Shown here one piece after another: positions 3,142-32,922 of a DNA stretch of 38,844 bases. The stretch is from IMG/VR virus record IMGVR_UViG_3300043958_000214, one strand, 5' to 3'. Each line of letters begins with the position of its first letter. Positions within the stretch are counted from its first letter, which is position 1. This DNA is from a virus. The position numbers and the translations under genes are program-made. Below the pieces are notes generated by a model. It searched no databases, was not told the origin of the DNA, and was given only the letters and a program-made list of their open reading frames with translations.

Positions 3142-3435
3142 TCAGCGGACCTGGAGGGTCGGGTCGACAGGCAGGGGGATCCCCCTGCTGACAGCGGGGA
3201 GGACGACCAAGACCCTTCCCGTCTTCGACGTCGAGGGCGTCTGAATCTTCCGCAGGCTGGTCGGCAGCGGGGCGATGGCGCGCTTGGAGGGGGAGGTCGA
3301 GGTCTGGACAGTGGAGGTGGTCGCGTTGTGGACCGCGGCTTCCGCCGGGGTGGTGAAGGCACCGAGCCCGCCGATGGCAAGGGCCGCGGCGACGAAGGCT
3401 ACTGAGGTCTTTCGGATAATGGCTGAATGGGACAT
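3142..3435 (-). CDS. Small secreted protein with Sec signal peptide
   Basis: MSHSAIIRKTSVAFVAAALAIGGLGAFTTPAEA; CAGGAG RBS. Confidence 0.6.
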   Translation of the reverse strand: MSHSAIIRKTSVAFVAAALAIGGLGAFTTPAEAAVHNATTSTVQTSTSPSKRAIAPLPTSLRKIQTPSTSKTGRVLVVLPAVSRGIPLPVDPTLQVR

Positions 3436-3539
3436 CTTGTTTCTCCTGCGGGTATCGGGGCATCTGATTGACGCGCTCATCGGGTGTTGTGGGGCAGGTG
3501 GCCTGCTCAGGCACTCTTGTGCGGCATCTGTGTCTCACC

Positions 3540-4256: not shown

Positions 4257-7061
4257 TCAGAATCCCGCATCGACGGAATCCAGAACGGCGCTCGAATCAC
4301 GGCGCTGGCTCTCGAGATCATCCTCGTCACCGTTCCAAATCGCCAGCGGGATCCCAACGCATCTGACGTTGGGCTGGCCATTGATGCGGCGGTTGATAGT
4401 CCCTCGCCCGAAGTCGGTGCCGGACGAGACGGCAAGCAGATCCGTGGTCACGCGGCGCGCAGGGACGCGGATGAGTTCCTCGATCGCCTTCGGGTTGATG
4501 AACACCGCCTGTTGGTCCTTAAACGCCTGGAACGCCCCGATGCAGCGCATCGACGAAGTCACGGCCGACGGCTCGTCTCCCTTCTCATCAACCAGATAGG
4601 CGCGGCCGGAGGCGAGAAGGGAAGTGATCTCCTCCATCATGAGCTCGCCTGGCGTCCGGTTGCCTCCCATGTAGGTGGTCGTGTTCATGATGATCTGGTG
4701 GATGAGCGCGTCGTGGAGCTCGATGAGGAAGCCCTCCGGCAGGTCGTTGGTGAAGCGCACGTCGCGGGCGAAGGCGAGGAACGACTCATAGCCGGTGAGC
4801 AGCCCGGCCACCGCCCGGCGGGCACGGTCGGACACGTGCGCGTCGTCGAGCTTCTTCCCGTCGCGCTCGCGGATGTAATCCGCCCAGGCTTCGCGTTGCT
4901 CATTGCACCGGCGGCGGAAGACGGTCATCTTCGCCTCAGCGTCGACCCGGGACCCGGGCTCGGTGCCGACGGGCGTCTGGGCGGGCATATTCCTCAACTC
5001 TGCCGCCAGGTAGCGCAGGTAGGCGGCGAGGACGAGTGGAAACCGGCCTTTCGCCATTTCCTCATAGAGGTGGCGCAGGGCGGCGTTCCCGTCATCGCTC
5101 AGGTCGCCGTCCAGGCCGGGGATGAAGGTGCTGCGCGGCCGCATCGGAATGATGACCATGCGGTCCAGGCCGGAGTCGGCGAACCCGGCGCCCACCGGCA
5201 CCTCCTCGCCCGTGATGATGGCCAGCGGGGCGGCGTCATCGGTGGCGCGCACGGCGAGCCCGCCGGCGTCCCTGTCCACGGTTCCTCGGCGGCGCCCGCC
5301 GGAACCGTAGGAGCGCCGCAGCAACCCGTCAAGGGATTCGCGCGCTTTCTCCGCGGCTTTCGGGGACGCTTCCGGCTTGAAGTCGTCGACGTGGATGAAG
5401 ATGTCGGACATTCCGGTTGTGATGAGGTCCGTGGCCGCGGCAGAAGCGTTGAAGGAGGCCATGGGGGTCTGCTGGGGTCCCCATTCGGGGTTGAGGGCGG
5501 TCGAGATCGCCTGGGCGATGGTCGACTTGCCGGAGGAGCGCGGACCGAAGTAGGCGAGAGCGGCGTTGGGGACGATCGGCAGGAGGGAGAGTCCGAAGGC
5601 TGCGACGCCGACGTCCCATTGGAAGGGCTCGTTGAACAGCCTGCGTGTGCCGATGAACTCGAGCACCGCCTCCTTGACAGCCTGACGGTCCTCAGGGTCA
5701 TCGGGATCGGGGTCGGCGAGCTTGATCCGGTGGAAGTCGGAGGCGGCAGGTCGGGCGACGATGGATTCGTCCAGCCCGTCACCGGTCATGGTGCCGTTGC
5801 CCCCGACCCATCCCCATCGGGGTGCCTCTCCGTGGGGGAGGTACCAGCCGGTGCGCGGGAGGATGAGGAGGGACTCGATGTTGTCGGAGTTCTCCCGGAT
5901 GGCGCCCGCGATGTCGTCGTTGGGGCGGGTGTCCCTTTTGACGGTGACGCCCTCGGTGCCGGGGAGGGATCCGAGCCATTCCCCGATGTAGGACAGGCGG
6001 GCGTCGGGCACGCGGACGTCGGGGTGGGAGGAAGCGGGCGTGGTGAAGTCCGGGCTGGTGGGAGTCGTGATCTCCAAGACGAGGGTTTTGGGGGAGGGCT
6101 GGCCGGTGTTGCGCTCGTCGATGATCGACTCGACGCGCTTGATGCGGGCGGCGGCGGCCAGCTCGGTGGTCCGGATGCTCATGTCCACCGCACCGTCCTT
6201 GGCGTCCGGTTCGGAATAGATGCGCCCGTGGTCCATGTCCACGGTCCACTTCTTTCCGTCGGCGGCGCTTGCTCTCGCCCCGGCGGTCTTGACCTTGGCT
6301 GCGGGCGCGCGTCCGAGCATGCCGGCTTGGCTGATGAGGTTGGAGAAGACGGACGGGCGCAGGGCGGGGTCTTTCGAGCCGAGGTAGTCGTCGAGTCCGG
6401 AGGTTCCTCCCACGAACCCGAGGTTGGCGAAGCGGACGGCTTTGGCGCTGAGGCCGGTGACGGCGCGGATCGCGTCGCGCAGCATTTTCCCTGCGCGATA
6501 GACGTTGGGGTTGGTGTGGATGTCCGCGTCGAAGAAGACGATGACGCGCTTGACGGCCCGTTTGGCGGGATCCGCCTGGGGGGTGAGGTCGGCTCCGCCG
6601 GCGAGGAGAATCCGCTCCAGGTCGGTGGAGGGCATGGAGTCCGTCTTCCAGTTCTGGCAGCCCTGGACGCCGAGGATGAGGGTGTCGTCGGGGGCGTTGA
6701 GGCAGGCGTTGATGGTTTGCTTGGTGCCTTCGACGATGACGACCTGGGATGCCGTGCCGACCCTTTCCGCCATCATTTCGGGGACGTTGATGATGGAGCC
6801 GACTCCCGGGGTCTGCACGTACTTGTTCAGGGGCTTCCCGTCTTCGTCCAGGGCCGGGTTGTCTTTGCGGAGCTGGTGGTAGATGTGTCCGTCGACTGTG
6901 CGCAGGGGGTAGACGAGTCCAGGGAGGATCCGCGAGCCGAGGTGGATGAGGTCGTCGGGGATGTCTTCGTCCGTCGTGGCGGAGACAATCCCCCATTTCT
7001 CCGCTTCTTCGGTCGGGATACCCTGTTTGGCGAGTAGGTCCTTGTGCGCTGACGTGAGCAT
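4257..7061 (-). CDS. Primase-helicase fusion (DUF3854/TOPRIM N-terminus, DUF927/SF3-like ATPase C-terminus); probable replication protein
   Basis: VIVEGTKQ and FFDAD TOPRIM motifs; Walker A GPRSSGKST; Walker B IHVDDF. Confidence 0.8.
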   Translation of the reverse strand: MLTSAHKDLLAKQGIPTEEAEKWGIVSATTDEDIPDDLIHLGSRILPGLVYPLRTVDGHIYHQLRKDNPALDEDGKPLNKYVQTPGVGSIINVPEMMAERVGTASQVVIVEGTKQTINACLNAPDDTLILGVQGCQNWKTDSMPSTDLERILLAGGADLTPQADPAKRAVKRVIVFFDADIHTNPNVYRAGKMLRDAIRAVTGLSAKAVRFANLGFVGGTSGLDDYLGSKDPALRPSVFSNLISQAGMLGRAPAAKVKTAGARASAADGKKWTVDMDHGRIYSEPDAKDGAVDMSIRTTELAAAARIKRVESIIDERNTGQPSPKTLVLEITTPTSPDFTTPASSHPDVRVPDARLSYIGEWLGSLPGTEGVTVKRDTRPNDDIAGAIRENSDNIESLLILPRTGWYLPHGEAPRWGWVGGNGTMTGDGLDESIVARPAASDFHRIKLADPDPDDPEDRQAVKEAVLEFIGTRRLFNEPFQWDVGVAAFGLSLLPIVPNAALAYFGPRSSGKSTIAQAISTALNPEWGPQQTPMASFNASAAATDLITTGMSDIFIHVDDFKPEASPKAAEKARESLDGLLRRSYGSGGRRRGTVDRDAGGLAVRATDDAAPLAIITGEEVPVGAGFADSGLDRMVIIPMRPRSTFIPGLDGDLSDDGNAALRHLYEEMAKGRFPLVLAAYLRYLAAELRNMPAQTPVGTEPGSRVDAEAKMTVFRRRCNEQREAWADYIRERDGKKLDDAHVSDRARRAVAGLLTGYESFLAFARDVRFTNDLPEGFLIELHDALIHQIIMNTTTYMGGNRTPGELMMEEITSLLASGRAYLVDEKGDEPSAVTSSMRCIGAFQAFKDQQAVFINPKAIEELIRVPARRVTTDLLAVSSGTDFGRGTINRRINGQPNVRCVGIPLAIWNGDEDDLESQRRDSSAVLDSVDAGF

Positions 7062-21017: not shown

Positions 21018-21638
21018 TTAGCCAGCCTCACGCACGCCCGCCCTCAGACCGCCGGAGGCAAGCAGCGGCATCAGAAACGCGCGGACCTCGGGTCCACCCA
21101 CATTGACGGCAGCCTCGACGCGCAGGCGCCACTGTCCCGCCAGGTCAGCAAGATCGTGGGAGCCCCAGTGAGTGAGCGCGGGCTCCTCCCCCTTCAAGGC
21201 AACAGCCACGCCATGGAAGATCTCGTTGTCACGAGCAAGGATCCAGCCGTCTTCCTTCTCCCCCTCCAACAGGTCATGGACGAAGCCGAGGAGCCAACGG
21301 ATGTCGGGGTCACTAGACCGCCGGAAACGTTCATCAACTGCAGGAAGCCGGTTACGGGGGTCCTCCTCGTCAAGCCGATAATCGCGCGAGAACCGATCGT
21401 CGTGAACCGCCTGGAAGGCCCCATCCTCCACACCGGACACGATCCACTGACCGACCCGAACCGTCACCCGAGCCTTCCCCCGCCCCAGAATGAGGCACCG
21501 GTCGAGGATGGGCGTCTCTGCCCACCCTCCTTCGTCCACGATCCGCGAAGCGATCGCGACACGATCCTCGATCCGGTCAGGAACGCGAACAGCCTCGCAA
21601 AACCCCTCCGGACCCTCGTACCACTTCCATCTCACCAT
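21018..21638 (-). CDS. Hypothetical protein
   Basis: Probably leaderless; motif GTTGCCTCACAAC 6 nt upstream. Confidence 0.65.
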   Translation of the reverse strand: MVRWKWYEGPEGFCEAVRVPDRIEDRVAIASRIVDEGGWAETPILDRCLILGRGKARVTVRVGQWIVSGVEDGAFQAVHDDRFSRDYRLDEEDPRNRLPAVDERFRRSSDPDIRWLLGFVHDLLEGEKEDGWILARDNEIFHGVAVALKGEEPALTHWGSHDLADLAGQWRLRVEAAVNVGGPEVRAFLMPLLASGGLRAGVREAG

Positions 21639-21680
21639 GCCGCAGTTGTGAGGCAACGTACAGACCCACGCACACCAACC

Positions 21681-22490
21681 TCAACGGCGCTCGCGGAAGT
21701 CGGTGGTTCGACGGGTGACATAGACCTGTCCGTCGGCGGACAGGCTGGGACCATCCCCGTATATGACGACCTCTGAGCCGTCGTGGGCGATCACGGACGT
21801 CTTGCCGGAGGCGACGATGAGGGAGTCCTTCCACGCCAGTCCCGTCGCTCTCCCGCTGAGATGGGCATAGGCACCCATCTTGACGTCGACGTCCGCCAGG
21901 TCGCGGGCCTCCACGTATGCTCCCCGCCCGACCGCGACGACGTGTGCCTGGCCGGACGCGCGGCACACTCCCCGATCGCCGAGGGCGACGCGGGATCTGC
22001 TCACGGCGTTGACGAGGATCGGGCCGCGAGTGAGGACGATGCCGTTGTAGGCCGTGACGACGGGGGCGTCGTTTTCGTCGTGCGCGTCGACGAGGACGAT
22101 CCCGTCGTAGATGTCGAGGGCTACCGGTGACTGGAGTCCGCTGACGCGTAGTTTCCCGCCAGGGTAGGTCGCGGTGGTGCTCCTGGTCTTCCTGGTCGTT
22201 GGCGGGTCCACGACGATCTTGCTGATCCTGCCCGCGTTGGCGATCTGGATGGCTTCGTTTAGCGCTTTCTGGGAGCGCACCACGGCTGACCGGTCTCTCT
22301 CTACGAGTTCTGCGTTGGGGTAGGTGTTCTCGATGGACTCGCGTTGGGGGAACTGATGGGGAAGTTGGAGTGGGGCAAAGGCTCGCTCGAGTTCAACGCC
22401 CTCCGCGTCGGCGTGGTCCTTCGGGCTGTATTGGCCGACGTTGGCGGGGTTGGCGCCACGGCGGTGTTTCGTCTCGTCATATGTGCTCAT
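21681..22490 (-). CDS. Shared-leader protein 1, with C-terminal beta-solenoid-like V-x-A repeats
   Basis: Starts MSTYDETKHRRGANPANVGQYSPKDHADAEGV. Confidence 0.75.
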   Translation of the reverse strand: MSTYDETKHRRGANPANVGQYSPKDHADAEGVELERAFAPLQLPHQFPQRESIENTYPNAELVERDRSAVVRSQKALNEAIQIANAGRISKIVVDPPTTRKTRSTTATYPGGKLRVSGLQSPVALDIYDGIVLVDAHDENDAPVVTAYNGIVLTRGPILVNAVSRSRVALGDRGVCRASGQAHVVAVGRGAYVEARDLADVDVKMGAYAHLSGRATGLAWKDSLIVASGKTSVIAHDGSEVVIYGDGPSLSADGQVYVTRRTTDFRERR

Positions 22491-22608
22491 GACTCTTCTT
22501 GTGCGGCAAGTCTTGGCTTGGCCTACGTCTCCCAGGTGGGCTGCGACGTTTTGTCGGGAGGGTCGGGGGCCTGTCGCCAATTCGTTGTCGGCCAGGTGGG
22601 GCGTACTT

Positions 22609-22663
22609 CGCCACGAGAGCGCCCCACCTGGCCGTGATGGTCGGGTGGGGCGCTCTCGTGGCG
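22609..22663. terminator. Long hairpin closing the array downstream of cas8e
   Basis: CGCCACGAGAGCGCCCCACCTGGCC-GTGAT-GGTCGGGTGGGGCGCTCTCGTGGCG. Confidence 0.65.
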
Positions 22664-22749
22664 TTTCCCCTCGTGAGAGGGGATCAATGGTTGCCGTGAC
22701 GTAGTGACTTTCCAGCCACTTGGCTCACCCCCACTCTCGTGGGGATAGA
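22659..22749 (-). CRISPR. Degenerate type I-E mini-array (repeat, 33-nt spacer, repeat) downstream of cas8e
   Basis: Minus strand: TCTATCCCCACGAGAGTGGGGGTGAGCCA (22749-22721), spacer AGTGGCTGGAAAGTCACTACGTCACGGCAACCA, TTGATCCCCTCTCACGAGGGGAAACGCCA (22687-22659); 62-nt period. Orientation is not certain. Confidence 0.6.
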
Positions 22750-22774
22750 ACCAGAGTACACCGACCGCCCTACT

Positions 22775-24175
22775 TCACTGCTCGGCGGCGGGCCGTGCTT
22801 CGTTCCACTTCTTGCGGATGACGTTGGGGAGGGCTGCTGGCGGGAATCCGGGGCGGGGCGGGGGGACGGGGCCGACGATGCGTTCGACTACCCGGCAGGC
22901 GTCTTCCACCCACCGGTCCAGGGCTTTTAGGTCGAGGCGGCGTCCGCGCAGGTAGGCGAGGATCGTGGGCGCAGTCCTCGCCTCCTGCTCTTCGGTGATG
23001 TGCTGGTGCATGGTTTGGACCCAGTCGCTGGGGGCGCCGGGGCGGCGGGAGGCGCGGGCGCTGACGATGATGTGGCTGACCTCCTCCGCAATGCCGGTGA
23101 GGGATTCGACTGTGCGGGCCCGCTCGGCCAGGCCGCTCGTGGTGAGGGTGAGGGTCTGGGTCTCAATGTCATCGATGCGGGAGCGCTGGGGGCCAAACCG
23201 GGTGATGAGGGTCTGGACGTCGAGGGTGGGGGGAAGGTCTGCGGGTGGGTCCTCCAGGAGTCGGCGCACGCCCACTGGGAGGGTGGCCCCCTTGGGGAGG
23301 ATGGCGGTCCATGGCTCCCCCGCCCACTCCGCTTCGCGGGGGATGAGGTTCCCGGTTCCGGCCAGGCGCATGAGGGCGTGGGGGTCGGCCGAGCGGATGT
23401 TGGTGGAGGGGAGCTGGTCGCCGTTGGCGATGAAGGCGCCGACCGCGTGGTCGTCCGCGTCGAGGGTGAGGCGCAGGCGGCGTCCCGGCCACACCAGGAC
23501 TCTCCCCGCCCCGACCTCGCTCACCTCATAGACGCCCCTGGGACGGTCCGCCTCGTCCTCCCACATGGGGGTTTCATCCCCGCCGTTGGGCCCCTCGGGC
23601 AGGTTCCAGATGATGGTGCGGTCCAGGGTGGGGTGGATGACGAGCGTGTTCGGGGCGACGGTGAGGATTCCGGGGCCCACGGGCATGGTCTTGCCTCGCG
23701 TGGTGCGCGCGTCTCCTGCGATGCCTGAGCGGATCCCGGAGGGGTCGGCGAGCATCCGGCGCAGGAGCGCTCGGGCCGCCACGTCAGGCCCCACGGCGTG
23801 CGGGACGGTGGCGCGGTTGGTGTCCATGGTGACCAGGCGGTCCAGCCCGTCGGGGATGGTGGGGTTGGAGGGGGCCACATCGTACTGGAACGCGCGGTCC
23901 AGGTCGAAGCGTGCGCGCCAGCGGGCGAGATAGGCGCGAATCTCCTCCAGGGGCAGGCCGCCCTCCCACACCTCGCGCCACGGGCGCCCTGAGCACACGC
24001 GCCACGTGATGGAGATGAGGAGCCGCTCGATGCTGCGCGCCTCCATAGGATCGTCGCCGCCCACCATGGCGATCGCGGGCGCCTGGGAGAACACGTCGGC
24101 CAGGGAGAGGGTCGGCTGGGTGCCGTCCCGGCTGACGACGGGGATCCACGGGTCATCAACGAGATTGAACACCAC
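22775..24175 (-). CDS. cas8e: Type I-E Cascade large subunit Cas8e (Cse1/CasA), solitary and divergent
   Basis: FNLVDDPWIPV...LSLADVF, RFDL...FQ, AARALL...DPSGIRSG, TLDRTIIWNL and WPGRRLRL motifs typical of actinobacterial Cse1. Confidence 0.88.
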   Translation of the reverse strand: MVFNLVDDPWIPVVSRDGTQPTLSLADVFSQAPAIAMVGGDDPMEARSIERLLISITWRVCSGRPWREVWEGGLPLEEIRAYLARWRARFDLDRAFQYDVAPSNPTIPDGLDRLVTMDTNRATVPHAVGPDVAARALLRRMLADPSGIRSGIAGDARTTRGKTMPVGPGILTVAPNTLVIHPTLDRTIIWNLPEGPNGGDETPMWEDEADRPRGVYEVSEVGAGRVLVWPGRRLRLTLDADDHAVGAFIANGDQLPSTNIRSADPHALMRLAGTGNLIPREAEWAGEPWTAILPKGATLPVGVRRLLEDPPADLPPTLDVQTLITRFGPQRSRIDDIETQTLTLTTSGLAERARTVESLTGIAEEVSHIIVSARASRRPGAPSDWVQTMHQHITEEQEARTAPTILAYLRGRRLDLKALDRWVEDACRVVERIVGPVPPPRPGFPPAALPNVIRKKWNEARPAAEQ

Positions 24176-24178
24176 CCC

Positions 24179-24544
24179 TCACCTCCCCAACCGCTTGTAG
24201 ACGGTGGACCGGGTGACGTGGGCGCGCTCAGCGATCTGGGCGATGGGCATGCCCTGGATGTCGGCGGCGACCATCGCGCCCTGCAGGCGGTCCAGGGCGT
24301 CCAGGTACCTCATCTGGGCGGCCCGTGCCTCCTCCCCCAGATCCTCCAGCGCGCCATCTCCGAGCGCGTACTGGGCGGCCCCGACCAGCTGCTCAGCCGT
24401 CATGCCCGCCTCGTCCTCCGGGGCGTCGGGCTCCTGATCCCGGTAGATCTCACGGATGCGGGCGGCCGCCCGCTGGAAAAGCCCCTGCTGCTCCTCGGTG
24501 CCGGCCCCGTCGAGGTAGGCCAGTGTTTCTGGCGTGATGTCCAT
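24179..24544 (-). CDS. Small protein with C-terminal HTH (Aca-like regulator candidate)
   Basis: GMPIAQIAERAHVTRSTVYKRL; CAGGAG RBS; stop lies 4 nt before cas8e. Confidence 0.75.
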   Translation of the reverse strand: MDITPETLAYLDGAGTEEQQGLFQRAAARIREIYRDQEPDAPEDEAGMTAEQLVGAAQYALGDGALEDLGEEARAAQMRYLDALDRLQGAMVAADIQGMPIAQIAERAHVTRSTVYKRLGR

Positions 24545-24602
24545 GATGTGCTCCTGCCGATCGCGTGTCTGATAGGGGTGTGCGTGTGTGTATAGTGGCC
24601 TC

Positions 24603-24693
24603 AGGTCCCCCGCGTAGGCGGGGGTAGGCCGTTCTCGTCGACGGCTGGCCAAGCCAATGGCTTGAACTTCCCCGCGTATGCGGGGGATGCGGG
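24603..24693 (+). CRISPR. Type I-E mini-array (repeat, 33-nt spacer, repeat)
   Basis: AGGTCCCCCGCGTAGGCGGGGGTAGGCCG (24603-24631), spacer TTCTCGTCGACGGCTGGCCAAGCCAATGGCTTG, AACTTCCCCGCGTATGCGGGGGATGCGGG (24665-24693); TATAGT -10 at 24591-24596. Confidence 0.75.
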
Positions 24694-24727
24694 ACCCGGG
24701 CCTTCGGGCTGGGGTCCCGCTTTTCTT
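24689..24727 (+). terminator. Intrinsic terminator after the mini-array (may also serve the convergent gene)
   Basis: GCGGGACCCGGGCC-TTCG-GGCTGGGGTCCCGC followed by TTTTCTT. Confidence 0.75.
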
Positions 24728-24730
24728 GGG

Positions 24731-25300
24731 CTAGGCGATCCGCTGGGCCTGCCCGGCGGCGTCGCGCACGACCTCCACGACCGCTTCGCCGTCCGCGAGG
24801 TCCGCCCACATGGCGGCGTGGAGCCCGTCCTCCTCGCGCCACACCACCGGTGTCCGCTCGTAGTCGCCCGGGTCCTCATCGAGGACCCACTCCCACCGCA
24901 CCGCCTCGTCGATGGCCTCCGCGCATGCGCGCTCGGCCGCAGCCCCCGCGTCCTCCGCCTGGGCATCGAGGCTGGGTGAGGGCTCCAGGGCCTCCGCCCA
25001 CTCCCTGAGCGAGTCCAGGTCCTCGAGCGAGTCGATGCTCAGCACGCGCAGGAGCTCGCCGGCGTGGACGCTGCCGTCCCCGTCCTCCTCGGGCAGGGAG
25101 GCCACATCCTCGATCTGCGTCCCCTCATCGGTCAAGTAGGTCCGGGCGGCGGCGCGGGGCACCCCGTCCTCGTCGAGGTAGCGGTCCTCGCGCATGATGG
25201 CGACCCGGACCCCCTTCCAGGCGGTGGCGGGGATCGTGTGGGCGATGATGCCCTCGGGCAGTGACCAGGAGCGGACCCGGTCCTCGATCGTGGCGGTCAT
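24731..25300 (-). CDS. Acidic hypothetical protein (anti-CRISPR candidate by context)
   Basis: 189 aa, D/E rich; AAAGGA RBS. Confidence 0.7.
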   Translation of the reverse strand: MTATIEDRVRSWSLPEGIIAHTIPATAWKGVRVAIMREDRYLDEDGVPRAAARTYLTDEGTQIEDVASLPEEDGDGSVHAGELLRVLSIDSLEDLDSLREWAEALEPSPSLDAQAEDAGAAAERACAEAIDEAVRWEWVLDEDPGDYERTPVVWREEDGLHAAMWADLADGEAVVEVVRDAAGQAQRIA

Positions 25301-25312
25301 GACGTGTTCCTT

Positions 25313-25723
25313 TCAGGCGTTCCAGATGTCGTCCGCGTGGTCGCGGATCCGGGAGAAATTCTCGATGCCGGCGATCCCGGTCTCGTCCTGCCAGTCGACC
25401 AGGTCAGAGACCAGGACCAGGAACTGCTCGGTGGTCTCGGAGTCGACCAGCTCGGCGGTCTCCGGGAGGATGAGGCGCTCACCCATCCGCTCGTCGCAGG
25501 GGGTGTCCTCGGAGGCGGGGCCCTCGATGCGGACCAGGACCGGGGCGCCGGCCTCGATCGCCATGACCGAGAGGTAGGCGGCGAGCTCGGGGAGCTCGTC
25601 CATACCGGACACCCCGTGGCGGACCGCCTCGTCGTCCCCGTTCATGGGGAAGGAGTACTGCTGCTCCGGGTCGAGGAGGTCACTGAGGCTGCGGTCCTTG
25701 TCCTGCATCCGGTAGGTGATCAT
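25313..25723 (-). CDS. Acidic hypothetical protein (anti-CRISPR candidate by context)
   Basis: 136 aa, D/E rich; GAGAGGA RBS. Confidence 0.7.
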   Translation of the reverse strand: MITYRMQDKDRSLSDLLDPEQQYSFPMNGDDEAVRHGVSGMDELPELAAYLSVMAIEAGAPVLVRIEGPASEDTPCDERMGERLILPETAELVDSETTEQFLVLVSDLVDWQDETGIAGIENFSRIRDHADDIWNA

Positions 25724-32893: not shown

Positions 32894-32922
32894 CTGTTCA
32901 TCCCCGCACTCGCGGGGACGTT
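32894..32922 (-). CRISPR. Solitary type I-E-like repeat unit, intergenic
   Basis: Minus strand AACGTCCCCGCGAGTGCGGGGATGAACAG; 29 nt with the 5+6+4+6+8 layout; no partner repeat about 61 nt away. Confidence 0.5.

Follow-up and report, generated by a model that had tools for sequence, protein, structure and literature searches.

A candidate type I-E CRISPR repeat pair in the 3′ UTR of a solitary cas8e gene carried by an actinobacterial mobile element

Introduction

Among anti-CRISPR agents, repeat mimics and crRNA-like RNAs carried by phages make up a class that is recent and still expanding, and crRNA-like type I-E arrays that act against CRISPR have been documented in phages and prophages (10.1101/2024.10.29.618823; 10.1101/2023.03.03.530964; PMC10651486). 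The locus described here raises the question of what a pair of CRISPR-like hairpins is doing directly behind a solitary cas8e gene on a mobile element. The DNA is that of a virus record (IMG/VR IMGVR_UViG_3300043958_000214), and we refer to its full 38,844 nucleotides as the window. A preliminary description, made from the letters alone, had pointed out two hairpin-forming units within positions 22609-22749 and had called them a degenerate mini-array. We refer to this pair as array A, and to a second array in the window as array B.

On balance, we lean toward the reading in which array A is genuine, with two type I-E repeats and the spacer between them forming a crRNA-like gene within the 3′ UTR of an HTH-cas8e operon that is carried by a mobile element. 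The RNA of this gene would be processed by the Cas6e protein of the host and would subvert or borrow the type I-E system of that host. If so, the element probably feeds a guide RNA of its own into the host CRISPR machinery.

A solitary cas8e gene on a mobile element

The gene preceding array A (positions 22775-24175, minus strand) encodes a protein of 466 amino acids that matches the Pfam family PF09481 (CRISPR_Cse1; 1.3e-44). A profile of its Cas8e relatives matches the Cse1 protein of PDB entry 3wvo (9.2e-52, residues 2-432), and an AlphaFold2 model (pTM 0.80) includes a C-terminal four-helix bundle. Because of these three lines of evidence, we regard the Cas8e of the element as a large subunit that is compact but complete. 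Just upstream resides a small gene (24179-24545, minus strand, with its ATG at 24545) whose product matches HTH_7 and Sigma70_r4_2, and which is probably the operon partner and regulator of cas8e. Small genes of the HTH type also precede cas8e in the related loci L004 (with a gap of 3 nucleotides), L001 and L002, and the small open reading frames found at this location in L010, L011, L013 and L014 lack a recorded family.

When all open reading frames of a complete Actinomyces type I-E locus were compared with the window by tblastn, only cas8e was recovered (1.7e-28), although divergent genes could escape such a search. By this measure, the canonical set of type I-E genes (cas3, cas11, cas7, cas5, cas6, cas1 and cas2) does not accompany array A. 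The window, a mobile element from an actinobacterium of high GC content, also encodes a PD-(D/E)XK nuclease, three DNA methylases and a primase with distant similarity to primases from phages of Streptomyces and Actinoplanes. Array A is therefore carried on a mobile element, outside of any CRISPR-cas locus.

This Cas8e is not an isolated case. A word-based protein search returned only the query itself, and an exhaustive search with HMMER revealed a subfamily of proteins of 450 to 500 amino acids that align over their full length with 31-41% identity, as well as a second group of ordinary Cas8e proteins of ~550 amino acids that align over the N-terminal half only. The solitary subfamily comprises more than 40 relatives, which derive from metagenomes, one MAG and one isolate genome. 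No other cas genes were called in the inspected flanks of these relatives, where genes for an integrase, a resolvase, a methylase, an Abi protein or an endolysin are among the neighbors of cas8e. The Actinomyces MAG (G001) carries a solitary cas8e gene (contig C4) together with a complete type I-E locus whose arrays have a period of 61 (contigs C26 and C266), so elements of this kind do encounter hosts with type I-E systems. VIPR systems, which we considered as possible kin of this Cas8e, proved to be unrelated.

Architecture of array A

Array A is located in the gap at 22493-22774, which separates two minus-strand genes. Read on the minus strand from the cas8e stop codon, the gap begins with 25 unremarkable nucleotides, which are followed by a repeat, a 33-nucleotide spacer (22688-22720), a second repeat and a 25-base-pair hairpin. 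The first repeat, A2′ (22721-22749), spans 29 nucleotides and consists of a 5-nucleotide flank, a CCCCAC/GTGGGG stem (22729-22744) with the loop GAGA, and the 8-nucleotide handle GTGAGCCA. The terminal repeat, A1′ (22659-22687), carries a CCCCTC/GAGGGG stem (22667-22682) with the loop TCAC, and its diverged handle overlaps the long hairpin. Each stem is composed of six base pairs closed by a 4-nucleotide loop, and the stem starts are 62 nucleotides apart, which is identical to the spacing in array B. The preliminary description had reported two stems with paired substitutions, as well as a 62-nucleotide period and a last repeat that merges into a long hairpin, the latter two mirroring the other array, and our direct reading and hairpin scan bear out this account.

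The closing hairpin (22609-22663, minus strand), which is evident both as an inverted repeat and in predicted folds, is built from two 25-nucleotide arms (22609-22633 and 22639-22663, 92% complementary) and abuts the terminal repeat. It is likely a terminator that has no U-tract, and terminators of this type are common in high-GC actinobacteria. A strong hairpin also follows the last repeat in array B and in the related loci L008 and L004, the latter with a run of T nucleotides. A third copy of one hairpin arm is present at 22591-22604 and could form 14 perfect base pairs with 22620-22633, which offers the long hairpin a second way to fold. The 9-mer CCACGAGAG is common to the arm and the first repeat of array A.

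Both units fit the form of type I-E repeats, which are ~29 nucleotides in length and carry a G/C stem of 6 to 7 base pairs (CCCC-N-C/G-N-GGGG) with a 4-nucleotide loop, and both can be aligned to real type I-E repeats without gaps. The handle of the first repeat conforms to the pattern (A/G)TGA-N-CC-N, as do the handles ATGAGCCG and GTGAACCG of real arrays in genomes G001 and G119, and the handle of the terminal repeat, AAACGCCA, is a poor fit. The period of 62 nucleotides and the 33-nucleotide spacer compare with periods of 61-63 nucleotides and 33-nucleotide spacers in real arrays, and the spacer length is that of a real Actinomyces type I-E array.

Arrays behind cas8e in related elements

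If array A belongs with cas8e, similar arrays might be expected beside other members of the solitary subfamily, and the preliminary description had proposed that the hairpins and their spacing be sought there. The hairpins are indeed found. The closest case, L066, is a short contig with a Cas8e fragment 82% identical to that of the window, and its stop codon is followed by an orthologous array of three repeats in the order R1 (handle GTGAGCCG), 33-nucleotide spacer, R2, 22-nucleotide spacer and R3, with periods of 62 and 51 nucleotides. The ortholog of A2′ is located at L066 774-802, and A1′ is closest to R3 (19 of 29 nucleotides, with an identical stem). The gap between the stop codon and the first repeat is 25 nucleotides in the window and 7 in L066, and the gap sequences also differ. 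Analogous arrays are carried by L004, in which four type I-E-type repeats with periods of 61, 49 and 51 nucleotides precede a T-run terminator, and by L008 and L022, in which two repeats with a period of 46 nucleotides precede a hairpin. In L004 and L008 the repeats lie on the cas8e strand and begin 16 to 33 nucleotides past the stop codon. Spacers in the relatives can be as short as 17, 20 or 22 nucleotides, and the second part of the expectation, a conserved spacing, does not hold, as evident by periods of 46, 49, 51, 61 and 62 nucleotides.

The layout of stop codon, repeats and hairpin is thus common to lineages whose Cas8e proteins are only ~40% identical. Most other lineages with a solitary cas8e gene have no type I-E repeats after the stop codon, and the array therefore is an accessory of the Cas8e family rather than a fixed part of it; by the same comparison, Cas8e does not appear to need an array. 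The array-bearing lineages fall within one unresolved group of the Cas8e tree, which neither demonstrates nor excludes a single origin for them.

Three further observations concern the surroundings of these genes. In L034, a type I-E-type repeat pair (6046-6123, period 49, first handle ATGACCCG) is located 2.2 kb downstream of a solitary cas8e gene on the same strand, and appears to represent further repeats that travel with this family without being adjacent to the gene. In L004, the same motif of ~45 nucleotides (TTTACATGTGAGGT-N-GGTTTAC...) is present upstream of the HTH gene (3430-3480) and again between the array terminator and the next gene (5700-5760), and is probably an operator or promoter for the HTH protein that brackets the HTH-cas8e-array unit. 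Finally, the motif CCGCACAAG, located 7 nucleotides before the start of the gene that follows array A, is retained in the window (22490-22510) and in L066 (1018-1040), although the remainder of the gap has diverged; its conservation agrees with the promoter-like motif named in the preliminary description.

Tests against chance

Hairpins of this type might arise by chance. The pattern CCCC-NN-N4-NN-GGGG occurs at six distinct sites in the window (seven hits), versus 1.07 ± 1.14 in Markov shuffles. The largest count in any shuffle was 8 (one of 200 shuffles), so the number of hairpins is not decisive by itself. A stronger test is provided by a leave-out covariance model, which we call R2 and which was trained on array B, a solitary repeat elsewhere in the window, L004, L008, L034 and a real Actinomyces repeat, with array A excluded. 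When both strands of the entire 38.8 kb were searched with R2, matches were obtained at 22721-22749 on the minus strand (E = 0.0012) and at 22662-22690 on the plus strand (E = 0.006). These two matches are 62 nucleotides apart and directly behind the cas8e stop codon. An Rfam scan of 21500-25500 yielded nothing significant, with array A unmatched and array B aligning to CRISPR-DR28 with an E value of only 1.4, and a DNA similarity search with 21600-25400 against phages and plasmids gave no match.

Alternatively, the hairpins could be ordinary terminators or insulators that separate cas8e from the gene behind it and have no CRISPR role, in which case the resemblance to type I-E repeats would be a by-product of G+C-rich stems. 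Array A is indeed intergenic between two minus-strand genes, its 25-base-pair hairpin is dominant, and the 211-nucleotide region folds strongly on both strands (z = -8.3 for plus and -8.6 for minus); one Markov shuffle, moreover, equalled the observed CCCC...GGGG count. However, such hairpins would not be expected to exhibit the exact geometry of six base pairs and four loop nucleotides, a type I-E-like handle and the 62-nucleotide period of array B. Repeats of the type I-E form also recur after the stop codon in three or four Cas8e lineages, and L010 and L016 exemplify the form that an ordinary terminator or operator takes behind cas8e. We consider this explanation highly improbable.

Covariation of the stems and classes of host repeats

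The stems of 17 repeat units were compared. At the fifth base pair, 13 units have G-C, two have A-U and two have U-A, and the pair is broken in none. The covariation score of 0.168 exceeds the values from shuffles (0.072 ± 0.018), none of 500 of which reaches it, and also exceeds all slid controls. Overall, the stems are 93% paired, with a G·U pair in one unit and a C·A mismatch at the fourth pair of another. Within the L066 array alone (774-915), the fifth pair differs in each repeat (G-C, A-U and U-A), and R1 of this array has a C·A mismatch at its fourth stem pair. Repeats of the window and L066 are 59-69% identical, and pairing is retained nonetheless; in the first repeat, both partners of a pair have changed, so that A-U is replaced by G-C. 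Because pairing persists through two-sided changes despite this divergence, the comparison supports the conclusion that the hairpin is under selection, and the earlier proposal that selection preserves the hairpin while the primary sequence drifts gains support from the fifth-pair covariation. The locus also serves as a small worked case of repeat covariation in arrays of a kind that the preliminary description expected array finders to miss.

The same data bear on the possibility that array A is a decaying, non-functional remnant of an array that was captured together with cas8e. There are only two repeats, the terminal handle has diverged, R1 of L066 carries a stem mismatch, and arrays have been lost from, or were never present in, most lineages. 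These signs of decay are difficult to reconcile with two-sided changes that keep the stems paired while loops and flanks diverge, or with a layout of stop codon, repeats and hairpin that is kept across Cas8e proteins that are ~40% identical. Furthermore, cas8e is not located beside the array in canonical type I-E loci (as evident by the gene order in L065), which makes their joint capture unlikely. We therefore judge a mere remnant to be very unlikely.

The stem classes in array A also bear on the term 'degenerate' that had been applied to it. Real type I-E arrays with CCCCAC/GTGGGG stems exist in actinobacterial genomes G006, G020 and G119 (22 to 24 matches to the stem pattern per genome) and in G232 (three copies on a short contig), and in G119 this stem is found together with the handle GTGAACCG at periods of 61-63 nucleotides. 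The first repeat of array A matches real arrays in G119 and G232 in both stem and handle, and is therefore normal for actinobacterial type I-E systems. The repeat of Thermus thermophilus type I-E arrays also has a CCCCAC/GTGGGG stem. The term remains suitable for the terminal unit only. No real array with a CCCCTC/GAGGGG stem was found among 401 genomes sampled. Matches to this stem in G280 were rejected as CRISPR repeats because they belong to another repetitive element with a period of 68 nucleotides. Arrays A and B may therefore each mimic a separate class of repeats found in hosts. No claim is based on G019, G121, G175, G269, G319 or G392, which are flagged as unpublished.

The strand of array A

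The preliminary description regarded the orientation of array A as ambiguous, and the left unit (22659-22687) taken alone still scores slightly better with R2 on the plus strand (18.2 versus 13.3 bits on the minus strand). If the plus strand were used, or if the two repeats faced each other, array A would encode an antisense small RNA that is independent of cas8e. Consistent with such an arrangement, the plus-strand sequence of either unit contains GGGG-AT, and the left loop then is GTGA, as in the loops of L004. However, the right unit (22721-22749) scores 20.8 bits on the minus strand versus 9.2 on the plus strand, and all repeats in L066, L004 and L008 are oriented with cas8e. For L066, R2 assigns 24.4, 16.0 and 13.3 bits to the three repeats on the cas8e strand versus 11.0, 11.8 and 10.8 on the other. 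A search of 22300-25000 for a plus-strand promoter identified none besides that of array B. We find a plus-strand or convergent arrangement quite unlikely. A case for the minus strand can now be made, because the orientation in the three relatives, the lack of a plus-strand promoter, the mirrored repeat-spacer-repeat-hairpin layout of array B and a conserved spacer 5′ end on the minus strand all point in this direction, and it seems likely that array A is read on the same strand as cas8e.

The spacer of array A

The spacer of array A and the first spacer of L066, both 33 nucleotides long, are identical at 25 positions, including all of the first 11. This 76% identity approximates that of the third codon positions of cas8e (75%), and overall conservation of the spacer consequently proves nothing; the argument depends on the run of 11 identical nucleotides, which has a chance probability of ~0.04. 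Cascade complexes of type I-E leave every sixth position of the guide unpaired, and the first difference between the two spacers is at position 12, one of these every-sixth positions. The pattern is no more than suggestive of a seed formed by the first 11 nucleotides.

Searches for a target were negative throughout. No target is present in the window or in any of the related loci. Among 50,697 phage records, no match was significant (best E = 5), and IMG/VR yielded none with either the full spacer or its first 22 nucleotides in searches that allowed any base at every sixth position. Five genomes of candidate hosts, all with related repeats, contain no target in either orientation at three or fewer mismatches in 20 nucleotides. 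Seed matches in four cas8e loci of candidate hosts do not exceed the shuffled null, and a guide directed to the beginning of the host gene for Cas8e likewise gained no support in these loci. The spacer can form an internal hairpin (7 base pairs with a GGAA loop), and we rejected this structure as a special feature because its minimum free energy of -8.6 kcal/mol falls within the range of real host spacers (-3.2 to -14.6) and 9% of shuffles fold equally well.

The absence of a target in the sequences searched would be explained if the hairpins were decoys similar to Racrs, acting as sponges for Cas6e and Cas7 that draw Cascade subunits into dead-end complexes, with a spacer in name only. The varied periods of the relatives (46, 49, 51, 61 and 62 nucleotides), the degenerate terminal repeats and the presence of a solitary repeat at 32894-32922 likewise accommodate a decoy function, and Racrs, including type I-E examples, are documented (PMC10651486). 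Yet a decoy would not call for a first spacer that has the canonical 33 nucleotides in both the window and L066 and begins with 11 identical nucleotides, nor for a first repeat whose 5′ handle GTGAGCCA is close to those of real arrays. For inhibition by RacrIF1, the 5′ handle was largely dispensable (PMC10651486). We view a pure decoy as unlikely and continue to favor a guide-encoding array.

A possible mechanism and its relation to known systems

In established type I-E biology, Cas6e binds the stem-loop of each repeat and cuts at its 3′ base. With this biology in mind, we infer the transcription, Cas6e processing, assembly and biological role of array A as follows. Since no separate promoter was found, we infer that the transcript of the HTH-cas8e operon reads through both repeats, and it would stop at the long hairpin. 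Host Cas6e would bind the stem-loop of each repeat and cut at its 3′ base, which would release one RNA composed of the 8-nucleotide 5′ handle GUGAGCCA, a 33-nucleotide guide and a 3′ hairpin. After the cut, Cas6e would remain bound at the 3′ end of the mRNA for Cas8e. The released RNA could then assemble with the Cas5, Cas7 and Cas11 proteins of the host and with the Cas8e protein of either the element or the host. The resulting complex might serve the element by holding host Cascade on a fixed target or with a useless guide, as an anti-CRISPR comparable to Cracrs and Racrs, or alternatively might act against a rival element.

Several known systems resemble this arrangement. Cracrs are crRNA-like regulatory anti-CRISPR RNAs of viruses, and include a type I-E array from a Salmonella prophage whose spacers of 21 and 24 nucleotides cause Cascade to repress its own casA promoter (10.1101/2024.10.29.618823). 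Like Cracrs, array A is a short repeat-like array on a mobile element with a degenerate last repeat, would be made for host Cas6e and Cascade, and is part of an anti-defense-like locus with an HTH gene. Shortened spacers, another Cracr characteristic, occur in the relatives L004, L008 and L066 (17 to 22 nucleotides), and the short later spacers of these loci fit what is observed for Cracrs, Racrs and mini-arrays. The spacers of Cracrs are complementary over at least 9-10 PAM-proximal base pairs to a cas promoter of the host or to a target of the CreT type. Unlike Cracrs, array A has a full-length spacer of 33 nucleotides, has no match to a host cas promoter in the loci searched, and forms part of the 3′ UTR of a cas8e gene that is carried by a mobile element.

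Racrs are RNA anti-CRISPRs that consist of solitary repeat units, including some of type I-E (Nature 2023, PMC10651486). Array A likewise mimics a host repeat on a mobile element and has the stem-loop as its conserved part, and the window also contains a truly solitary repeat that is a Racr-like candidate. However, array A has two repeats at a distance of 62 nucleotides, a spacer of canonical length and a good 5′ handle, and it could therefore in principle nucleate a complete rather than an aberrant Cascade.

Regulatory mini-arrays of type I loci, including copies in prophages, carry spacers that match the cas8 promoter of the same locus or of the host (Shmakov et al., 10.1101/2023.03.03.530964). 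They resemble array A in having two repeat-like units around one spacer, often partly degraded, in their linkage to cas8, in escaping array finders and in occurring on prophages. Array A differs in its location downstream of a solitary cas8e gene on a mobile element and in having no promoter match in the sequences searched. Mini-CRISPR arrays carried by viruses in conflict with other viruses have spacers that match related viruses (PMC7099407). These arrays, too, have one or two spacers and require Cas proteins of the host, whereas the spacer of array A matches no other mobile element among the 50,697 phage records or in IMG/VR. Array A is accordingly a variant of the known kinds represented by phage mini-arrays, Racrs and Cracrs. 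In the searchable literature we found no description of a Cas8e family from mobile elements whose genes carry such arrays in their 3′ UTRs, or of any such coupling to a mobile cas8e gene.

This physical and probably transcriptional coupling to a dedicated Cas8e homolog sets array A apart. If protein and RNA work together, the element could replace the subunit that reads the PAM and recruits Cas3 while it also supplies its own guide. A more tentative proposal, which we advance as a possibility rather than as a likelihood, is that certain elements mobile among Actinomycetota are equipped with a kit of two parts, in which their own Cas8e and a 3′-UTR guide with a conserved seed take over the Cas5, Cas6, Cas7 and Cas11 scaffold of the host. 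The large subunit of the host, with its roles in PAM reading and in calling Cas3, would be swapped for the version encoded by the element. Such a kit, were it to exist, might turn the immune complex of the host into a tool of the element, and we found no description of a takeover of class 1 effectors by a protein and an RNA together. If correct, the proposal would bear on the subversion of type I effectors and on the origin of derived, nuclease-free Cascade variants.

Other repeats in the window

Array B (24569-24727, plus strand) is real. It has its own promoter, two CCCCGC/GCGGGG repeats (24603-24631 and 24665-24693; stems at 24608-24623 and 24670-24685, period 62), a 33-nucleotide spacer that is unrelated to the spacer of array A, and a T-run terminator. 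Its repeats score 32.5 and 28.8 bits with R2, although these units were in the training set. Genome G051 contains a real array of 43 copies, and the solitary repeat at 32894-32922 (minus strand) differs from its repeat at one of 23 nucleotides. Of all repeats in the window, this solitary unit is the most canonical, and it is a candidate Racr-like element.

The segment 24629-24645, which comprises the last 3 nucleotides of repeat B1 and the first 12 to 14 nucleotides of the array B spacer, matches positions 1052-1066 of the window at 15 of 15 nucleotides (E = 0.003 in a local search). It also matches the gene for the large terminase subunit in ~90 Mycobacterium and Streptomyces phages at 17 of 17 nucleotides (BLAST E = 7). 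Rival phages could contain a target of the seed type, or a conserved motif could have been matched by chance; in phage Celia the match is antisense to the terminase gene.
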